This document shows positions 4,483-19,512 of a stretch of DNA of 20,000 bases, piece after piece. Source of the stretch: an uncultured virus (IMG/VR IMGVR_UViG_3300022700_000186) (Duplodnaviria > Heunggongvirae > Uroviricota > Caudoviricetes); the IMG/VR virus record IMGVR_UViG_3300022700_000186; one strand, 5' to 3'. Both the position numbers and the translations under genes were made by a program. Under the pieces are notes generated by a model that saw nothing but the letters and a program-made list of their open reading frames with translations, searched no databases and was not told where the DNA came from. The stretch's first letter is position 1. Each line of letters begins with the position of its first letter.

Positions 4483-4743
4483 ATGAAATTCAAAACCAAA
4501 GAAGATTTAATGAAAGAATTTGATTATTTCAATGGTGAATCTGTACAAACAGGAATTGAAATATCTTTCAACTCCTTCAAAGAACGTATTGACTTCTATA
4601 ACAAATACAAAGATAAACCATATAAAGATTATATAAGAGATTATGCACTCACAGAAAAAGTACATAACATAGAAAGAACAGGAAATATTAAAGATGATTG
4701 GAAAGATTGGCTCTTCGACTTCTGCTTCGGTGATATAGAATGA
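4483..4743 (+). CDS. Paralogue 1 of the MKFKxKE / SFKERIDFYNK / WLFxxCFGDIE family
   Basis: Three conserved blocks shared with 6967-7281 and 7399-7695; GAGTGAT RBS. Confidence 0.85.
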   Translation: MKFKTKEDLMKEFDYFNGESVQTGIEISFNSFKERIDFYNKYKDKPYKDYIRDYALTEKVHNIERTGNIKDDWKDWLFDFCFGDIE

Positions 4744-6820: not shown

Positions 6821-6970
6821 ATGTTCTTCAAATCAATACCTAAAAGAAAAATAGACTCAAGTAACATACACAAATATAACATCTTTATATATGGAAAATC
6901 AAATGGTGACAGTGGTTTGATAATACACAAGAAACCAGTTGAAGAAATTATGGGATGGAGTGTAATATGA
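6821..6970 (+). CDS. Small hypothetical protein (49 aa)
   Basis: MFFKSIPKRKIDSSNIHKYNIFIYGKS...; ATGA overlap with 6967. Confidence 0.5.
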   Translation: MFFKSIPKRKIDSSNIHKYNIFIYGKSNGDSGLIIHKKPVEEIMGWSVI

Positions 6971-7281
6971 AATTCAAAACAAAAGAAGAATTAATTGAAG
7001 AGTCAAAAACAAGAAAGGGTAAACATCAATTAGCATCTCACGTTGATGTTGAAAGTTATAAATCTGGAAGGATGAACGGAATACTGGTAGCATTTTATTC
7101 TTTCAAAGAACGCATCGACTTCTACAACAAATACAAAAAATCACCTATCAAATTATATGAAGATTATCCAGAATTATATGCCAAATATGATTCAGAAACA
7201 CAGTTTAAAGAAAATGAATACAAATTACAAATAGAATATCAAGACTGGTTATTCCACTACTGTTTTGGTGATATAGAATGA
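6967..7281 (+). CDS. Paralogue 2 of the MKFKxKE...CFGDIE family
   Basis: Start set to ATG 6967 by alignment with the other paralogues. Confidence 0.85.
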   Translation: MKFKTKEELIEESKTRKGKHQLASHVDVESYKSGRMNGILVAFYSFKERIDFYNKYKKSPIKLYEDYPELYAKYDSETQFKENEYKLQIEYQDWLFHYCFGDIE

Positions 7282-7409
7282 ACTCATACATACAATGTTT
7301 AATTGATTCAGGAATAATCGAAAAGAGAGATAACAAATACTACATTGCTTGTGAAAAAGGTGAAGAAGTAACTATCGAACTAAAGGAGATATTTGAAAAT
7401 GAAATTTAA
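7278..7409 (+). CDS. Small hypothetical protein (43 aa)
   Basis: MNSYIQCLIDSGIIEKRDNKYYIACEKG...; starts in the GGTGATATAGAATGA coupling motif. Confidence 0.55.
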   Translation: MNSYIQCLIDSGIIEKRDNKYYIACEKGEEVTIELKEIFENEI

Positions 7410-7695
7410 ATCAAAAGAAGATTTAGTACCATATGGAGGATTTATCTCTCCGATATCATCAAAATCATTTATAGATGGGGTAAACTATTCTTTCAACTCT
7501 TTCAAAGAACGCATAGATTTCTACAATAAACACGAATGTACTTCACCATTTAAAGGAGGATATTCAGAACACTTAGAAAGAATAATCAAAGAAAATCCAG
7601 AACTGTACCATAAATTCCTTAAAGATATCACAAACGAAAAAGGTATTTTTTGGAACACATGGCTCTTCCAATACTGCTTCGGTGATATAGAATGA
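7399..7695 (+). CDS. Paralogue 3 of the MKFKxKE...CFGDIE family
   Basis: Start set to ATG 7399 by alignment; AAGGAGAT RBS upstream. Confidence 0.85.
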   Translation: MKFKSKEDLVPYGGFISPISSKSFIDGVNYSFNSFKERIDFYNKHECTSPFKGGYSEHLERIIKENPELYHKFLKDITNEKGIFWNTWLFQYCFGDIE

Positions 7696-11653: not shown

Positions 11654-11674
11654 TTTTTCTTCCAAAGCCTTAAA

Positions 11675-11730
11675 TTTAACGAAACTTTTATATACCATAA
11701 AGTATATACATTTTATTGGTGATTGAAAAT
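11675..11730 (+). promoter_or_regulatory. Archaeal promoter/leader B, twin of promoter A
   Basis: CGAAAC-TTTTATATA; perfect dyad TATATAC-N6-GTATATA (11689-11708); GGTGATTGAAA RBS. Confidence 0.8.
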
Positions 11731-12810
11731 ATGACCACAGAAAAACGGAGCAACTTTTCCCTCAAGGAATTGGCGGAGGAGTTGGAAAGGCAGAAACACT
11801 CACGATACGACATCGTAGTCCCCACAGATAAATTGCTCGTTCTTAGAGACGGTAACACCATTAAAATGGATGTTCCTCAACTAGATGGTAATATCAAACA
11901 ACATGGTATTACAGACTGGGCTCATGGGCAGATAGCAAATAAAACAGGAATACCAAAAAAGTATTACGACAAAATGCGTGAAAAAGGTAAACTTGATTTA
12001 CTTGCAAAAAACATTAACACTTGGATGCCCGACCGAGAAAAACGTATGGTACGAGTTCTTGATAACAAAGTACGAGCGTTACTTTCGGATAGATACCGAG
12101 TAATTGATAACTACGATATTCTGTATCTTACACTCAAAAAATTCCGAGAACTCGGTAACAAACGCAACCTTAGCATCAACGTTCTTTCACAGAACCTTAC
12201 CCCGACTAACCTGTATATCAAAGCTACAAGTCCCGATTTATCAGGACAGGTAATGAAATACAAAGGAGAAACCGAACCAGTCGAAGGTGGTTTGATTATT
12301 CAGAACTCCGAGGTCGGAGCAGGTAGTTTTCAGGTTAAACCATTTATCAATGTTTTAGTTTGCACTAACGGTTTAATCAGTGAACAATCATTCAAAAAAG
12401 TCCACATCGGTCGAAGCCTTGGTGAAGGATTCGTTGATTGGAGCAACGATACACTCCGACTTGAAGACGAAGCACTTTGGTCAAAAATCAACGATATGAT
12501 TAGTTCTACATTCAAACCCGAAATATTCCAGAAATGGTTGGATGAAATCAACGATGTTTCTACTACTGAAGTTCCGAAACCAACCAAAGCTGTTGATAAC
12601 ATTATCAAACACTACAATGTTGATAAAGGTTTGAAAGATGATTTACTCGACCAGTTCACAAAACAAGCACCAACACAATGGGGCATGAGCATGGCAGTAA
12701 CACGAATTGCACAAAACGTTGATTCATACGAGAAACAAATCGAAATGGAGAAAATCGGTTCTGAACTTCTGAAAAAGAAAGCAACAAAAATTCTTACGGT
12801 TGATGAATAA
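11731..12810 (+). CDS. DUF932/DUF945-like phage/plasmid protein
   Basis: RALLSDRY-x-IDNYDIL and GLIIQNSEVGAGSFQVKPFINVLVCTNGLI signature; start at ATG 11731 after GGTGAT. Confidence 0.85.
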   Translation: MTTEKRSNFSLKELAEELERQKHSRYDIVVPTDKLLVLRDGNTIKMDVPQLDGNIKQHGITDWAHGQIANKTGIPKKYYDKMREKGKLDLLAKNINTWMPDREKRMVRVLDNKVRALLSDRYRVIDNYDILYLTLKKFRELGNKRNLSINVLSQNLTPTNLYIKATSPDLSGQVMKYKGETEPVEGGLIIQNSEVGAGSFQVKPFINVLVCTNGLISEQSFKKVHIGRSLGEGFVDWSNDTLRLEDEALWSKINDMISSTFKPEIFQKWLDEINDVSTTEVPKPTKAVDNIIKHYNVDKGLKDDLLDQFTKQAPTQWGMSMAVTRIAQNVDSYEKQIEMEKIGSELLKKKATKILTVDE

Positions 12811-12830
12811 TCAACCATTTTTATTTCTTT
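12798..12830 (+). terminator. Hairpin over the stop codon followed by a T-rich tract
   Basis: GGTTGAT-gaata-ATCAACC is a 7-bp stem, followed by ATTTTTATTTCTTT. Confidence 0.5.
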
Positions 12831-13318: not shown

Positions 13319-13828
13319 ATGAATGATGGATATATCCAATCAAAACAACGTGAACTTGATGACAAGCTGAATACCATGTTATCGAAAATCGAAATTCTTG
13401 AAAAGAAAACGGAAAACATCGATGAAAAATATGAGCAAATCAATCAACTTCTTGATAGTATCAAAAAGGAAAATAAACACCGAGATAATATCAAACATGA
13501 ACTCGAAAAGGAAACAAAACAAATCATCAATGAAATGGTACCAAAGGTTCAAAATAAAATAAGCAATAGGATTGATAAGAAATTCGATAAACATGAAGAT
13601 TACTTTAATGATAGATTAGGGGATATGCATAAATCAACTACAATGTTGGTAGATGAAACAAAAAGTCTGCTCCAAGCAAAACTTCAGTTAACAGTGCTTT
13701 CTTACCTTCTATACAAACAGGGTATCATTGATAGAAAGGAATTTCACTTAATAGAAAAAATGGATAACGTAAAAGTAACAAAGAACAAAAAAGTAATGGA
13801 TATACTAACCGAAATAAAGAGAATGTAA
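13319..13828 (+). CDS. Coiled-coil hypothetical protein
   Basis: Heptad-like charged sequence; probable start at ATG 13319 after GGGGGA. Confidence 0.75.
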   Translation: MNDGYIQSKQRELDDKLNTMLSKIEILEKKTENIDEKYEQINQLLDSIKKENKHRDNIKHELEKETKQIINEMVPKVQNKISNRIDKKFDKHEDYFNDRLGDMHKSTTMLVDETKSLLQAKLQLTVLSYLLYKQGIIDRKEFHLIEKMDNVKVTKNKKVMDILTEIKRM

Positions 13829-13905
13829 TTGGTGGAAAGGAAGTATGTTTGGTAATTTTTTCATCCCATCCTTAAAAATAGAATATACTTCCCCACAAAC
13901 AATTA
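13826..13905 (+). ncRNA. BHB element 1: predicted splicing-endonuclease substrate, excisable RNA 13838-13898
   Basis: TAATTG-GTGG-AAA-GGAAGTATGTTT ... GAATATACTTCC-CCAC-AAA-CAATTA: 6-bp outer stem, 4-bp central helix, two 3-nt bulges, 12-bp inner stem (2 G-U pairs). Confidence 0.7.
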
Positions 13906-13916
13906 GGTGATAACAA

Positions 13917-14300
13917 ATGAAAATAGCAAACCCAGATAGAGGCTGGCAAAAGTTCCATGATGATATAAAAAAGAAACGGAATAAAAACAAATCCGAACAT
14001 CGTAAACTGCCAACATACGAATCCATTGAATCATACACACCGCAACACCAATCAACACACCAATCACAACCATATCAAACACTACCGCAATCTCCAACAG
14101 TGAACTACAATATCAACCCACCTCAAACCACACAGGGCAACGTCAATGAAAACAAACCAGGACTAGGGTTAATTATCGGATTACTAATTGTTGTTGTTTT
14201 CCTTGCGTTTCTGTTTCAACCAGAGCAAACCATGAACGTATTCCAAACAATCTTTGAACGAATATCAAATTTCTGGTACACAATTAAAGGAGCGATGTAA
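13917..14300 (+). CDS. Membrane-anchored protein with a P/Q/T-rich linker
   Basis: AGGTGAT RBS; basic N-terminus, low-complexity linker, TM helix near the C-terminus. Confidence 0.8.
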   Translation: MKIANPDRGWQKFHDDIKKKRNKNKSEHRKLPTYESIESYTPQHQSTHQSQPYQTLPQSPTVNYNINPPQTTQGNVNENKPGLGLIIGLLIVVVFLAFLFQPEQTMNVFQTIFERISNFWYTIKGAM

Positions 14301-14572
14301 TGTCAAAAATAAAAGTACACGAAAAAGATTGCATCAACCGATTAGGAAAACCTTACACCCATGTACATCGCTTCCTTGACCAATACGCAAAACAGTATCA
14401 CGGTTCAAAACGCCATAGAAAACATTTACATAACAAAAAAGGATTATCAATAATAAAAAATAAATGGGGACAGAAAGCATACCAAGCTGGAAAAATCCAT
14501 TTATGGCGAGACCGAAAGGAGAACAGTAGAGACTACATTATGGCATGGGGAAAGAAGTTTGGTATGTTATAG
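14300..14572 (+). CDS. His-rich DUF6915-like protein
   Basis: H...VHRFLD...RHRKHLH...G...IHL-x2-D pattern; TAATG coupling. Confidence 0.6.
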   Translation: MSKIKVHEKDCINRLGKPYTHVHRFLDQYAKQYHGSKRHRKHLHNKKGLSIIKNKWGQKAYQAGKIHLWRDRKENSRDYIMAWGKKFGML

Positions 14573-14660
14573 GTGCAGATAGGTAGATGATTGAGTTGTG
14601 GGGTTCCGTTTCAATCACCAAATCCTATTTTTTTATCATCTATCCTGCAAAACCTTTAAT
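14566..14660 (+). ncRNA. BHB element 2: predicted splicing-endonuclease substrate, excisable RNA 14581-14650
   Basis: AGGT-GCAG-ATA-GGTAGATGAT ... ATCATCTATC-CTGC-AAA-ACCT: outer stem, 4-bp central helix, two 3-nt bulges, 10-bp inner stem (1 G-U pair). Confidence 0.7.
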
Positions 14661-14671
14661 ATTAAATTTTT

Positions 14672-14686
14672 GAAAACCTTTAAATA
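14672..14686 (+). promoter_or_regulatory. Archaeal BRE-TATA promoter
   Basis: GAAAACC-TTTAAATA; an AAAACCTTTAA copy also lies 24 nt upstream (14649-14659). Confidence 0.6.
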
Positions 14687-14708
14687 AAAAAAGGTACATT
14701 ATGATAGT

Positions 14709-14918
14709 ATCGGAAAAAAGAAGCGAAAACCAAGAGCAAAAATCGGTCCTATTTCAGGAAAGCGTCTTTACACTGCTGAACAGTATCTTAGAATGCCAGA
14801 ATACGAAATCAAAGGCAAACTCAAAAGAGATATAGATGAAATCGAAAGAAAATTCCAGAAACAACAAAAGAAGTTAAAACAAAAATGTAAATCAAAAAAG
14901 AAAAAGAAGTGGTTATAA
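14709..14918 (+). CDS. Basic protein, possible non-AUG (ATC) leaderless start
   Basis: Frame (I)GKKKRKPRAKIGPISGKRLYTAEQYLRMPEYEIKGKLKRDIDEIERKF...KWL* ends in TAATG coupling. The first ATG is at 14793; ATC 14709 is 30 nt after the TATA start. Confidence 0.5.
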   Translation: MGKKKRKPRAKIGPISGKRLYTAEQYLRMPEYEIKGKLKRDIDEIERKFQKQQKKLKQKCKSKKKKKWL

Positions 14919-16364: not shown

Positions 16365-16419
16365 TTATCTTATGAATATTAAAAAAACAATAAACTATAA
16401 ATAGGTAAAACGTGATAAC

Positions 16420-16785
16420 ATTACTGAAGTAACAATCAGACTGAAAGCAGAAAACGTACATATCGCAATAGACGATGAAGAGGAGCTTTCAAAGAAACAT
16501 GATATCAGTCTCTCAGGAGCTGTTGCTAAATGCATCAAACACGTCTACCGATACAAAGCATTCAATATGCCAAAAGATATAATGATAGCAATCCTATGGC
16601 AAGCATTAAAAGGTCTGCATTGTAAACAGGAACATCTCGATGTATCACAACGACTATCAATTTACGAATACTTCCAAGACAAAGAAATCGACGACCCTTA
16701 CATTCAACAATTCATGAAAGAAACAAAGGAGAAATATACAATAATTGAGAGGAGAAAAAATGAACCCGATAAAAATAGAAGTTGA
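16420..16785 (+). CDS. Putative ribbon-helix-helix-like protein, probable ATT start
   Basis: The frame is open for 49 codons upstream of ATG 16567: (I)TEVTIRLKAENVHIAIDDEEELSKKHDISLSGAVAKCIKH. GTGAT lies 3 nt before ATT 16420. Confidence 0.55.
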   Translation: MTEVTIRLKAENVHIAIDDEEELSKKHDISLSGAVAKCIKHVYRYKAFNMPKDIMIAILWQALKGLHCKQEHLDVSQRLSIYEYFQDKEIDDPYIQQFMKETKEKYTIIERRKNEPDKNRS

Positions 16786-18321: not shown

Positions 18322-18658
18322 AAAAGGAAAAAAGAGCTTCAAGGTATACTTTACATACAATCCAGATTTGGTTGATATAATGAAAGACCACGATGGATGG
18401 TATTTTAAAAAACAGAAAGCATGGACTTTTCCAAATAAACGATTCCGTAAAGTATATGATGACCTAAAAGAAGAGGGTTATAAAGTAAATATATCAACCG
18501 AAGTACCAAAACCAAAGAATATCAATGTTGATAAAAAGAAAGAACTAAGGAACAAAGATGTTATTGCTGTCTTTGGTACCTGCAAGAAATGTAAACAAAA
18601 GAACTTTGTTGGCGAAGATGATTTATGTTCAAGATGTAGAAATACGGTGAAAAAATGA
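18278..18658 (+). CDS. HARP-like domain plus C-terminal Zn finger
   Basis: FKVYFTYNPDLVDIMK-x4-WYFKKQKAWTFP; CKKC...CSRC. The start may be ATA 18299 after GGAGGAGAT. Confidence 0.65.
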   Translation: MKLEEIHIQSPVKIKKGKKSFKVYFTYNPDLVDIMKDHDGWYFKKQKAWTFPNKRFRKVYDDLKEEGYKVNISTEVPKPKNINVDKKKELRNKDVIAVFGTCKKCKQKNFVGEDDLCSRCRNTVKK

Positions 18659-18849
18659 AAGTACAAAGCATACATGATATGATTAAAATCAAGGCGGAAA
18701 AATACAAGAACATTAAGGAAATGAAAGACTACGAGGGAGAAATCGAAGCAATAGAATGTTTTGTGGAAAGGGCAATGGAAGATATGATAGATGGGATGCT
18801 TGATATGCTTGATGATGGGTTGATAATTGGTAGAAGGGAAAAATCGTAG
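18655..18849 (+). CDS. Small hypothetical protein
   Basis: ORF track; GGTGA RBS; ATGA overlap. Confidence 0.65.
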   Translation: MKVQSIHDMIKIKAEKYKNIKEMKDYEGEIEAIECFVERAMEDMIDGMLDMLDDGLIIGRREKS

Positions 18850-19122: not shown

Positions 19123-19140
19123 TTCTCAAAAATTTTTCTG

Positions 19141-19206
19141 TATACCTAAACTATATACCGTAAACTATATATAGTTATAACCATATATCATGTATTAGTG
19201 ATTGAA
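19141..19206 (+). promoter_or_regulatory. Archaeal promoter/leader C with tandem repeat and palindrome
   Basis: TATACC(G)TAAACTA occurs twice; perfect palindrome AACTATATATAGTT at 19163-19176; GTGATTGAAATGGAAA is identical to 676-691. Confidence 0.65.
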
Positions 19207-19512
19207 ATGGAAACAAAACAAATATCAAAACATGAAGCAGGTCTTAACGAAATAAGCAACGCTGTAAAGAATATGGTTAAAAGGAACATCAAATACGCAA
19301 AAGGTATCTTGATTGAACGAAAAACAGTACATGAAGATACAATACAAATAGATGTTCAATTTGATAATCTTACCGTTTTTATATCAGACCTTAATGATAT
19401 GATTGGGGTACAATCAGTTCATTTTAACCAATATACGAAAAAACTTATTATTGAATTCGTTCTTTGGAAAAATGAAGCAGAACGCATCATAGATAATTAC
19501 AAGGAGGACTAA
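19207..19512 (+). CDS. Hypothetical protein
   Basis: Start at ATG 19207 after GTGAT. Confidence 0.75.
   Translation: METKQISKHEAGLNEISNAVKNMVKRNIKYAKGILIERKTVHEDTIQIDVQFDNLTVFISDLNDMIGVQSVHFNQYTKKLIIEFVLWKNEAERIIDNYKED

Follow-up and report, generated by a model that had tools for sequence, protein, structure and literature searches.

The 20,000-nt stretch of DNA analyzed here (the window) comes from an uncultured virus of the Caudoviricetes (IMG/VR record IMGVR_UViG_3300022700_000186) and carries, between two genes, a hairpin with the geometry of a bulge-helix-bulge (BHB) element, here called element 2. The apical loop of this hairpin holds a segment that is complementary to the leader, ribosome-binding site and start codon of three other genes, each of them the first gene after a promoter-like region. 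A chance origin of this complementarity is unlikely. Pairing of RNA with RNA, in whatever form, is the most economical explanation and has about an even chance of being correct; it is favored because the shared word consists of a ribosome-binding site, a spacer and an ATG, and because its mirror image occupies the apex of a strong coding-strand RNA hairpin. The best single account is that the RNA of element 2 would be excised at its two bulges and would act as an antisense ring that blocks the three leaders. Drawn from sequence, this account is a tentative one, more probably wrong than right.

Complementarity between one loop and three gene starts

Four segments take part in the complementarity:

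14604-14621, + strand: antisense segment, the complement of the three targets that follow
676-690, + strand: target 1, leader and start (ATG at 685) of the first gene after promoter A, with TTTATATA at 642-649
11716-11728, + strand: target 2, leader of the DUF932-like gene (ATG at 11731) after promoter B, with TTTATATA at 11687-11694
19198-19212, + strand: target 3, leader and start (ATG at 19207) of the first gene after promoter-like region C, with TATATATA at 19166-19173

By direct reading, positions 14604-14618 are TTCCGTTTCAATCAC, and positions 676-690 are identical to 19198-19212, each reading GTGATTGAAATGGAA. The loop pairs with both of these over 15 contiguous positions, including a single G-U formed by G14608 opposite the U of AUG. 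Further, 14609-14621 (TTTCAATCACCAA) is the exact reverse complement, over 13 nt, of 11716-11728 (TTGGTGATTGAAA). A first-pass annotation of this DNA had put forward both pairings, and every one of its coordinates was confirmed; the inverted arm pair 676/14596 was also recovered independently by a repeat search (as I14). The same annotation had placed the targets in the first genes after promoters A, C and B, and TATA-like boxes are indeed present before each leader. These boxes (TTTATATA at 642 and 11687, TATATATA at 19166) start 32-34 nt before the G of the 10-mer GTGATTGAAA. If such a box is centered near -26, which we take to be the rule, the transcripts of A-C would begin 2-4 nt before this G, and the complementarity would then span essentially the whole leader. 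The flanks of the segment are divided between the targets, as its TTGG side fits target B and its GGAA side fits targets A and C. This hybrid match to B-type and A/C-type leaders would fit selection for all three better than it would fit a decaying single copy.

The 10-mer GTGATTGAAA has four copies in the window (three on the + strand at the three starts and one on the - strand in the loop), against an expectation of 0.22, and a count of four was reached in none of 200 shuffles. Within a comparison set of 53 start regions of the window, the three named starts take ranks 1-3 by duplex energy, and these ranks are kept after correction for accessibility (-16.9, -16.2, and -14.3 for the excised form); the fourth-ranked start, at 1671 (GGTGATTTAAAATG), reaches -10.2 and the median is -3.7 after the same correction. 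The first-pass annotation had named targets that rank no higher than background as an outcome that would count against its proposal; among the starts of the window, the targets instead rank above background. None of 500 shuffles, and likewise none of 500 random segments of the + strand, equaled the best duplex of the 18-mer (-21.6). The whole 44-nt interior gives a weaker signal, with the best energy reached in 16 of 500 shuffles and the sum of the top three in 1 of 500; none of 497 random segments reached either value.

The annotation had also cautioned that a common initiation motif raises the odds of a match. This caveat was addressed by a simulation in which the ATCACC core was held fixed and the flanks were randomized, with 4000 trials per run. 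A Watson-Crick run of at least 13 arose in only 14 and 18 of the 4000 trials, and two starts with at least 15 pairs, G-U included, arose in 2 and 3 of 4000. Resemblance to a ribosome-binding motif alone does not explain the pairing, since chance is exceeded even when the core is granted. The folding, cofold and opening-energy runs of the excised form took 14581-14651, one base beyond the predicted 14581-14650, and the random 71-nt controls numbered eight only. The opening-energy runs set as "circular" and as "linear" returned identical numbers, so that circular folding may not have applied.

The hairpin and its bulge-helix-bulge geometry

Element 2 and its immediate surroundings comprise the following:

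14300-14572, + strand: upstream open reading frame (ORF), with its stop codon TAG at 14570-14572, just 5' of element 2
14564-14662, + strand: element 2, whole hairpin, in the spacer from the stop of ORF 14300-14572 to the next start, 14701
14571-14574, + strand: outer helix H1, 5' strand AGGT, overlapping the stop codon TAG and pairing with ACCT at 14652-14655
14575-14578, + strand: central 4-bp helix H2, 5' strand GCAG, pairing with CTGC at 14645-14648; three of its four pairs are G-C
14579-14581, + strand: 5' bulge of 3 nt, ATA, with a predicted cut after 14580
14582-14591, + strand: inner helix H3, 10 bp, 5' strand GGTAGATGAT, pairing with 14635-14644
14588-14595, + strand: internal sense-like copy TGATTGAG, pairing with 14610-14617 in the fold of 14560-14634
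14598-14605 with 14621-14628, + strand: upper stem, closing the 15-nt apical loop 14606-14620 (CCGTTTCAATCACCA)
14628-14634, + strand: run of seven T in the interior of the hairpin, a candidate archaeal-type terminator
14649-14651, + strand: 3' bulge of 3 nt, AAA, with a predicted cut after 14650
14651-14690, + strand: promoter-like region D, with two copies of AACCTTTA (14651 and 14675) before the ATG at 14701, the first overlapping the 3' bulge and the 3' strand of H1 (H1')
14701, + strand: next start, 3' of element 2, without a leader of the target type

The region 14560-14665 folds with a minimum free energy of -31.1 kcal/mol (z -3.82), and 1 of 200 shuffles folds as well. H1 has 4 bp, followed past one unpaired base by 6 further bp, and the upper stem includes three G-U pairs. 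In both the minimum-energy fold and a geometric scan, the canonical hBHBh' arrangement is present, that is, two opposite 3-nt bulges with a 4-bp helix between them. Element 2 also has the flanking helices and the bulge polarity of pre-tRNAs, which we take to be a bulge 3' of the central helix on each strand. If the cut falls after the second base of each bulge, as is presumably the rule, the predicted cuts after 14580 and 14650 would release an RNA of 70 nt, 14581-14650. The antisense core is situated in the apical loop and is exposed in the full form (z -3.8) as well as in the excised form (z -3.4). On each of these points, the geometry with its cuts and the exposure of the segment, the fold agrees with what had been proposed from the letters. 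So it does on a third, an alternative fold in which 14588-14595 pairs with 14610-14617: this is the minimum-energy fold of a transcript that ends at the T run, and it masks the segment. Neither a C box (RTGATGA) nor a D box (CTGA) occurs in 14581-14651 or in the predicted intron of a second element of this kind, element 1. No reading frames are joined by either predicted excision, and the frame upstream of element 2 ends before the 5' cut.

Element 1 lies shortly upstream:

13826-13905, + strand: element 1, starting at the stop codon of ORF 13319-13828
13826-13831 with 13900-13905, + strand: H1, 6 bp
13832-13835 with 13893-13896, + strand: H2, GTGG/CCAC
13836-13838 and 13897-13899, + strand: bulges, both AAA
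13839-13850 with 13881-13892, + strand: H3, 12 bp
13851-13880, + strand: loop of 30 nt, with a run of six T (13856-13861) and the promoter-like CCTTAAAAATAG (13870-13881)

Both elements are intergenic, lie on the coding strand and start at the stop codon of the upstream gene, and their central helices are 75% GC in a genome of 32%. The promoter-like CCTTAAAAATAG is positioned to start transcripts near 13900, by the 3' cut, and GGTGAT and then an ATG at 13917 follow directly 3' of element 1. In the geometric scan of the + strand, element 1 is the best match (score 18) and element 2 the second (score 14). Shuffled windows contain a mean of 0.18 matches scoring at least 14 per shuffle, with a top score of 16; the score of element 1 was reached in 0 of 60 shuffles, and two matches of at least 14 occurred within one shuffle in 2 of 60. 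A control of mirror polarity peaks at 13 on the + strand, and nine other, unrelated phage loci yield two loci scoring at least 14 in 88 kb, both strands. The loop of element 1 was considered as a second antisense and rejected, as it forms only G-U-rich, interrupted duplexes.

The T run inside element 2 bears on which form of the RNA is made. The window has 26 T runs of at least five; 10 of them fall between genes, where about 10% of the sequence is found, and each of the promoter-like regions A-D has at least one T run upstream. This intergenic enrichment, together with the positions before A-D, indicates that T runs are likely terminators, and the seven-T run alone would fit an archaeal-type oligo-T terminator as we take the rule to be. 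A transcript ending there lacks the 3' half of the hairpin, 14588-14595 masks 14610-14617, and the predicted binding is weaker. Bacterial intrinsic termination, which takes a GC-rich stem with a loop of 3-8 nt and a T run directly after it, was considered for both elements and rejected: a consensus scan returned 13 sites, none of them at 14560-14660 or 13826-13905, and the loop of the upper stem is 15 nt. At 462-489, a 7-bp hairpin (GAATGGA/TCCATTC) is followed by runs of seven, six, and five T, and closes the unit before promoter A.

Protein searches found relatives at 47-99% identity. Among four runs whose contigs were compared with the window, two relatives cover both BHB elements, X1 with about 2% substitutions here and X7 with about 8%. 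Near element 2, X1 has lost 3 nt at 14628, which shortens the T run to about four, and X7 has gained 9 nt after 14570 and 1 nt after 14590 (the junction of stem and interior loop) and has lost 1 nt at 14628 and 1 nt at 14693. The bulges, central helix and apical loop are free of these insertions and deletions. Another run (X5) contains an identical 290-nt piece, 14448-14737, and is possibly the source sample. Searches of viral, metagenome and genome contigs for loci that encode relatives of ORF 14300, or of the ORF 13917 family (alignment query), returned none; the viral contigs contained neither a relative of the ligase nor the 20-mer of the stem. Relatives of the DUF932-like protein are only 28-38% identical, and there are no comparable hairpins at their loci. 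Loci sharing the 18-mer (31 loci) or the 15-mer (57 loci) of the loop were also considered as relatives and set aside, because their flanks are all unrelated (best local score 27, of which the word itself contributes 18). Five of the loci (L013, L014, L020, L031, and L033) share about 100 conserved nucleotides around the same 18-mer (…CTGTCCGTTGCTTTCCGTTTCAATCACCAAGAAAA…) that are unrelated to the window.

Weighing the explanations

In the excision account, element 2 would form a structured RNA where the 13917-14572 transcription unit of this tailed virus ends, and the full hairpin would form on those transcripts that read through the seven-T run. The tRNA-splicing endonuclease of the host would cut both bulges, and an RNA ligase would close a 70-nt ring, 14581-14650. 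The exposed loop of the ring could then pair with the 5' ends of the three mRNAs and block ribosome binding; the next unit, which starts at 14701 and has no such leader, would escape repression, and in transcripts ending at the T run the segment would stay masked. Since one target heads the operon upstream of element 2, the RNA would accumulate along with early expression and then shut off that expression. A more elaborate version, rather improbable as a whole, takes the loop as a tailored anti-Shine-Dalgarno copy extended to full leaders. The ring would be a stable timer that stops early translation and perhaps that of host mRNAs of the GGUGAU type, the T run would decide between a masked end and a ring, and the intergenic BHB sites would be to an archaeal virus what the RNase III sites are to phage T7.

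Several observations weigh against excision and trans-acting repression. (i) Most transcripts may stop at the seven-T run, short of the 3' half of the hairpin. (ii) The score of element 2 on its own is reached in 9 of 60 shuffles. (iii) The ACCT of H1' is part of the recurring promoter word AACCTTTA at 14651. This word has four copies on the + strand (610, 638, 14651, and 14675), found only in promoter-like regions A and D and forming two tandem pairs with spacings of 28 and 24 nt, and one copy on the - strand; because ACCT belongs to a word of promoter-like regions, the 4-bp H1 may be partly accidental. (iv) The targets are one motif family. They have a common leader motif, promoters A (626-673) and B (11671-11718) are duplicates, 85% identical over 48 nt (repeat D7), and A and C have 17 identical bases at the start; as the three share one leader motif, they are not independent. 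(v) In plain cofold, two targets score -6.3 and -6.1 against -6.2 for an unrelated start, and the third, 11731, falls outside the top seven. Plain cofold must melt the stem for the loop to pair, and for this reason the opening-energy calculation was used instead. (vi) When five proteins were compared with phage records, three (DUF932-like, ligase, and DUF7831) matched bacterial phages only; the remaining two had no match in these records.

The same pairing would do without excision if the segment belonged to a linear 3' tail or terminator hairpin, acting either in cis with the 5' end of a long mRNA from promoter B, whose two ends it would join, or in trans in the manner of a small RNA derived from a 3' tail. 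This possibility is a doubtful one. It accords with a T run just 3' of the segment in a window where T runs are concentrated between genes and precede each region A-D, and with a perfect match that is to the leader of the very operon upstream of element 2 and begins at about the predicted transcript start. In plain cofold, the truncated form also ranks the four GTGATT-type starts best (-12.2, -11.5, -10.8, and -8.5; next -6.9), but that form is masked by 14588-14595, and after correction for accessibility (-11.5, -8.2, -7.1) the starts no longer stand apart. Moreover, element 1 has its own six-T run and promoter-like word, which makes it doubtful that one transcript runs from promoter B to element 2, and a linear tail leaves the exact geometry of the bulges unexplained.

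Alternatively, the hairpins could be processing, insulating or terminating structures with no regulatory role for the loop, whose likeness to the leaders would be the leftover of an inverted copy or a rare coincidence. Given the T runs in both elements and the promoter-like word in element 1, the loops do look like ordinary terminator-plus-promoter spacers. The minus strand of the loop reads as a start region with ACG replacing ATG, and the observation was made post hoc, by a reader scanning many features. What renders this explanation rather unlikely is the low frequency of such pairing in the core-fixed simulation (14-18 of 4000), together with the character of the segment itself: in a test for inverted duplication its likeness to the leaders ends at 18-23 nt, it is a hybrid of the two leader types and not a single copy, and it sits centrally in the apical loop.

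It has also to be considered that the shared word serves as a binding site on the DNA for a regulator, of the virus or of its host, which would repress at the three promoters, where the word covers the transcript start, and possibly activate from the inverted copy about 35-50 bp upstream of region D. All four exact copies of the 10-mer adjoin promoter-like regions. Between the TATA-like box and the start, promoters A and B contain palindromic GTATAC-type words (TGTATACA and GTATATAC), and region C (19140-19175) contains TGTATAC and CTATATATAG; these words are possible operator sites. A frame at 16420-16785, read from an ATT at 16420, resembles by eye a ribbon-helix-helix protein, but no Pfam family was supported for it. 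The region to which this frame belongs, 16391-16785, has a promoter-like TAAACTATAAATAGG, then GTGAT and then an open frame in which an ATG, GTG or TTG first appears at 16567. Against a DNA site, however, the word is made up of a ribosome-binding site, a spacer and an ATG, and copies with one mismatch occur on the + strand at gene starts that have no promoter (1661 and 15995), which indicates that the primary role of the word is in RNA. A DNA site would have no reason to sit in the apical loop of a strong RNA hairpin, and the G-U position would be a mismatch in DNA. The operator explanation is accordingly held to be improbable.

The host is probably archaeal, to judge from signals in the DNA. 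The TTTATATA-type boxes stand at a fixed distance (32-34 nt) from the leaders of A, B, and C, stand-alone GGTGAT ribosome-binding sites are frequent, and there are two BHB elements; sigma-70-like sites are rarer than in shuffles (74 vs. 93.9, standard deviation 9.8), and promoters B and C do not fit the sigma-70 pattern. Further scans of Pfam and PHROG contained no archaeal marker. The combined reading of a bacterial host, in which the elements would be RNase III-type sites or weak terminators and the RNA an ordinary phage small RNA, would suit the bacterial-phage affinity of all detectable homologues, the terminator-like sites of hairpin plus T run at 462-489, 1627-1655, and 12798-12826, and stems of about 18-22 bp, which we take to be suitable for RNase III, but it is very improbable in the light of these promoter and ribosome-binding signals and would make a coincidence of staggered 3-nt bulges exactly 4 bp apart, with the correct polarity, found twice here and at only two loci scoring at least 14 in the nine phage loci.

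Genomic setting and comparison with known systems

The window belongs to a contig of 77,211 nt from a JGI/IMG metagenome. All its plausible genes are on the + strand, and its GC content is about 32%. The proteins recognized are an ATP-dependent ligase domain, a DUF932-like protein (phrog_1362), DUF7831, DUF2085, and several small zinc ribbons; according to a protein atlas, the ligase and DUF7831 fall among tailed viruses. A tRNA search of the window returned none, and an Rfam search of the window matched no family. Near-identical or related DNA is present in DNA metagenomes of aquatic, sediment, salt lake, soil, and mat origin (15 runs, 8 studies), and none of the 16 runs listed is an RNA run. 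Downstream of element 2, the gene at 14701-14918 is in two frames, with the break at a run of A (14714-14719). In X1, a 5-nt deletion at 14719 brings the ATG at 14701 in frame with the lysine-rich frame ending at 14918; an assembly error, a real frameshift or slippage are possible causes of the break. Elsewhere, three small paralogous genes (4483-4743, 6967-7281, and 7399-7695) have starts of the MKFK(T/S)KE type and common repeats D1-D5, and a weaker copy of this type of start is found at 18638-18687.

Even on a modest reading, a leader word and its mirror image in a hairpin loop make up a concrete pair with which translation control in an uncultured virus could be tested cheaply. Should element 2 be cut and its loop block these leaders, it would be the first regulatory RNA that a virus encodes and the tRNA-splicing pathway makes, a case of a virus borrowing host tRNA splicing for the timing of its genes, and a natural scaffold for stable circular antisense RNAs. 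To our knowledge, only two kinds of mRNA are substrates of the archaeal tRNA-splicing endonuclease, namely cbf5 and one haloarchaeal leader, and we know of no function for the released rings other than that of the box C/D guide from the tRNA-Trp intron. Among the literature matches listed, judged by title and abstract, there was no report of a BHB element in an archaeal virus, nor, in the same matches, one of an antisense RNA of an archaeal virus that covers a ribosome-binding site.

The haloarchaeal leader is that of the HVO_1309 mRNA of Haloferax volcanii, in which a 46-nt BHB intron is cut by the splicing endonuclease and released in circular form (Schwarz et al., 2020; PMC7714728). This ring has no known function. 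As in element 2, the BHB element lies in an untranslated part of an mRNA and belongs to neither a tRNA nor an rRNA. The HVO_1309 element is cellular and in a 5' leader, whereas element 2 is viral and intergenic, its RNA would be 70 nt, its loop is antisense to other leaders, and its cutting is predicted only.

The tRNA-Trp intron of Haloferax, Halobacterium, and Pyrococcus is described as a circular box C/D guide RNA (PMC12558985). It is thus, as is predicted for element 2, an RNA that is excised at a BHB, circularized, and works by base pairing. Unlike this intron, element 2 has no C/D boxes, and its target would be the start region of an mRNA instead of a methylation site. Another mRNA substrate of the tRNA-splicing machinery is the cbf5 pre-mRNA intron of Crenarchaeota (Watanabe, 2002; Yokobori, 2009, PMC2738675; as cited in PMC7714728). 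That intron interrupts a coding frame and has to be removed for the protein to be made, whereas element 2 joins no frames.

With respect to the proposed mode of action, the nearest likenesses are found among antisense and 3'-tail-derived small RNAs that lie over a ribosome-binding site, such as OOP of phage lambda, sar of P22, and sRNA162 of Methanosarcina mazei. These RNAs block initiation through a short exposed stretch that pairs with the ribosome-binding site and the start codon. They are linear primary or processed transcripts, in contrast to the ring proposed here, and we know of none of this type that is released by BHB cutting. With respect to position and processing, the early genes of phage T7 are separated by bulged, intergenic hairpins of about 20 bp that are cut by RNase III, an RNA-processing enzyme of the host. 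The internal loops of the T7 sites are opposed, whereas the two 3-nt bulges of element 2 are staggered, with 4 bp between them. No loop of the T7 sites is antisense to other genes, whereas the loop of element 2 is complementary to the starts of three.

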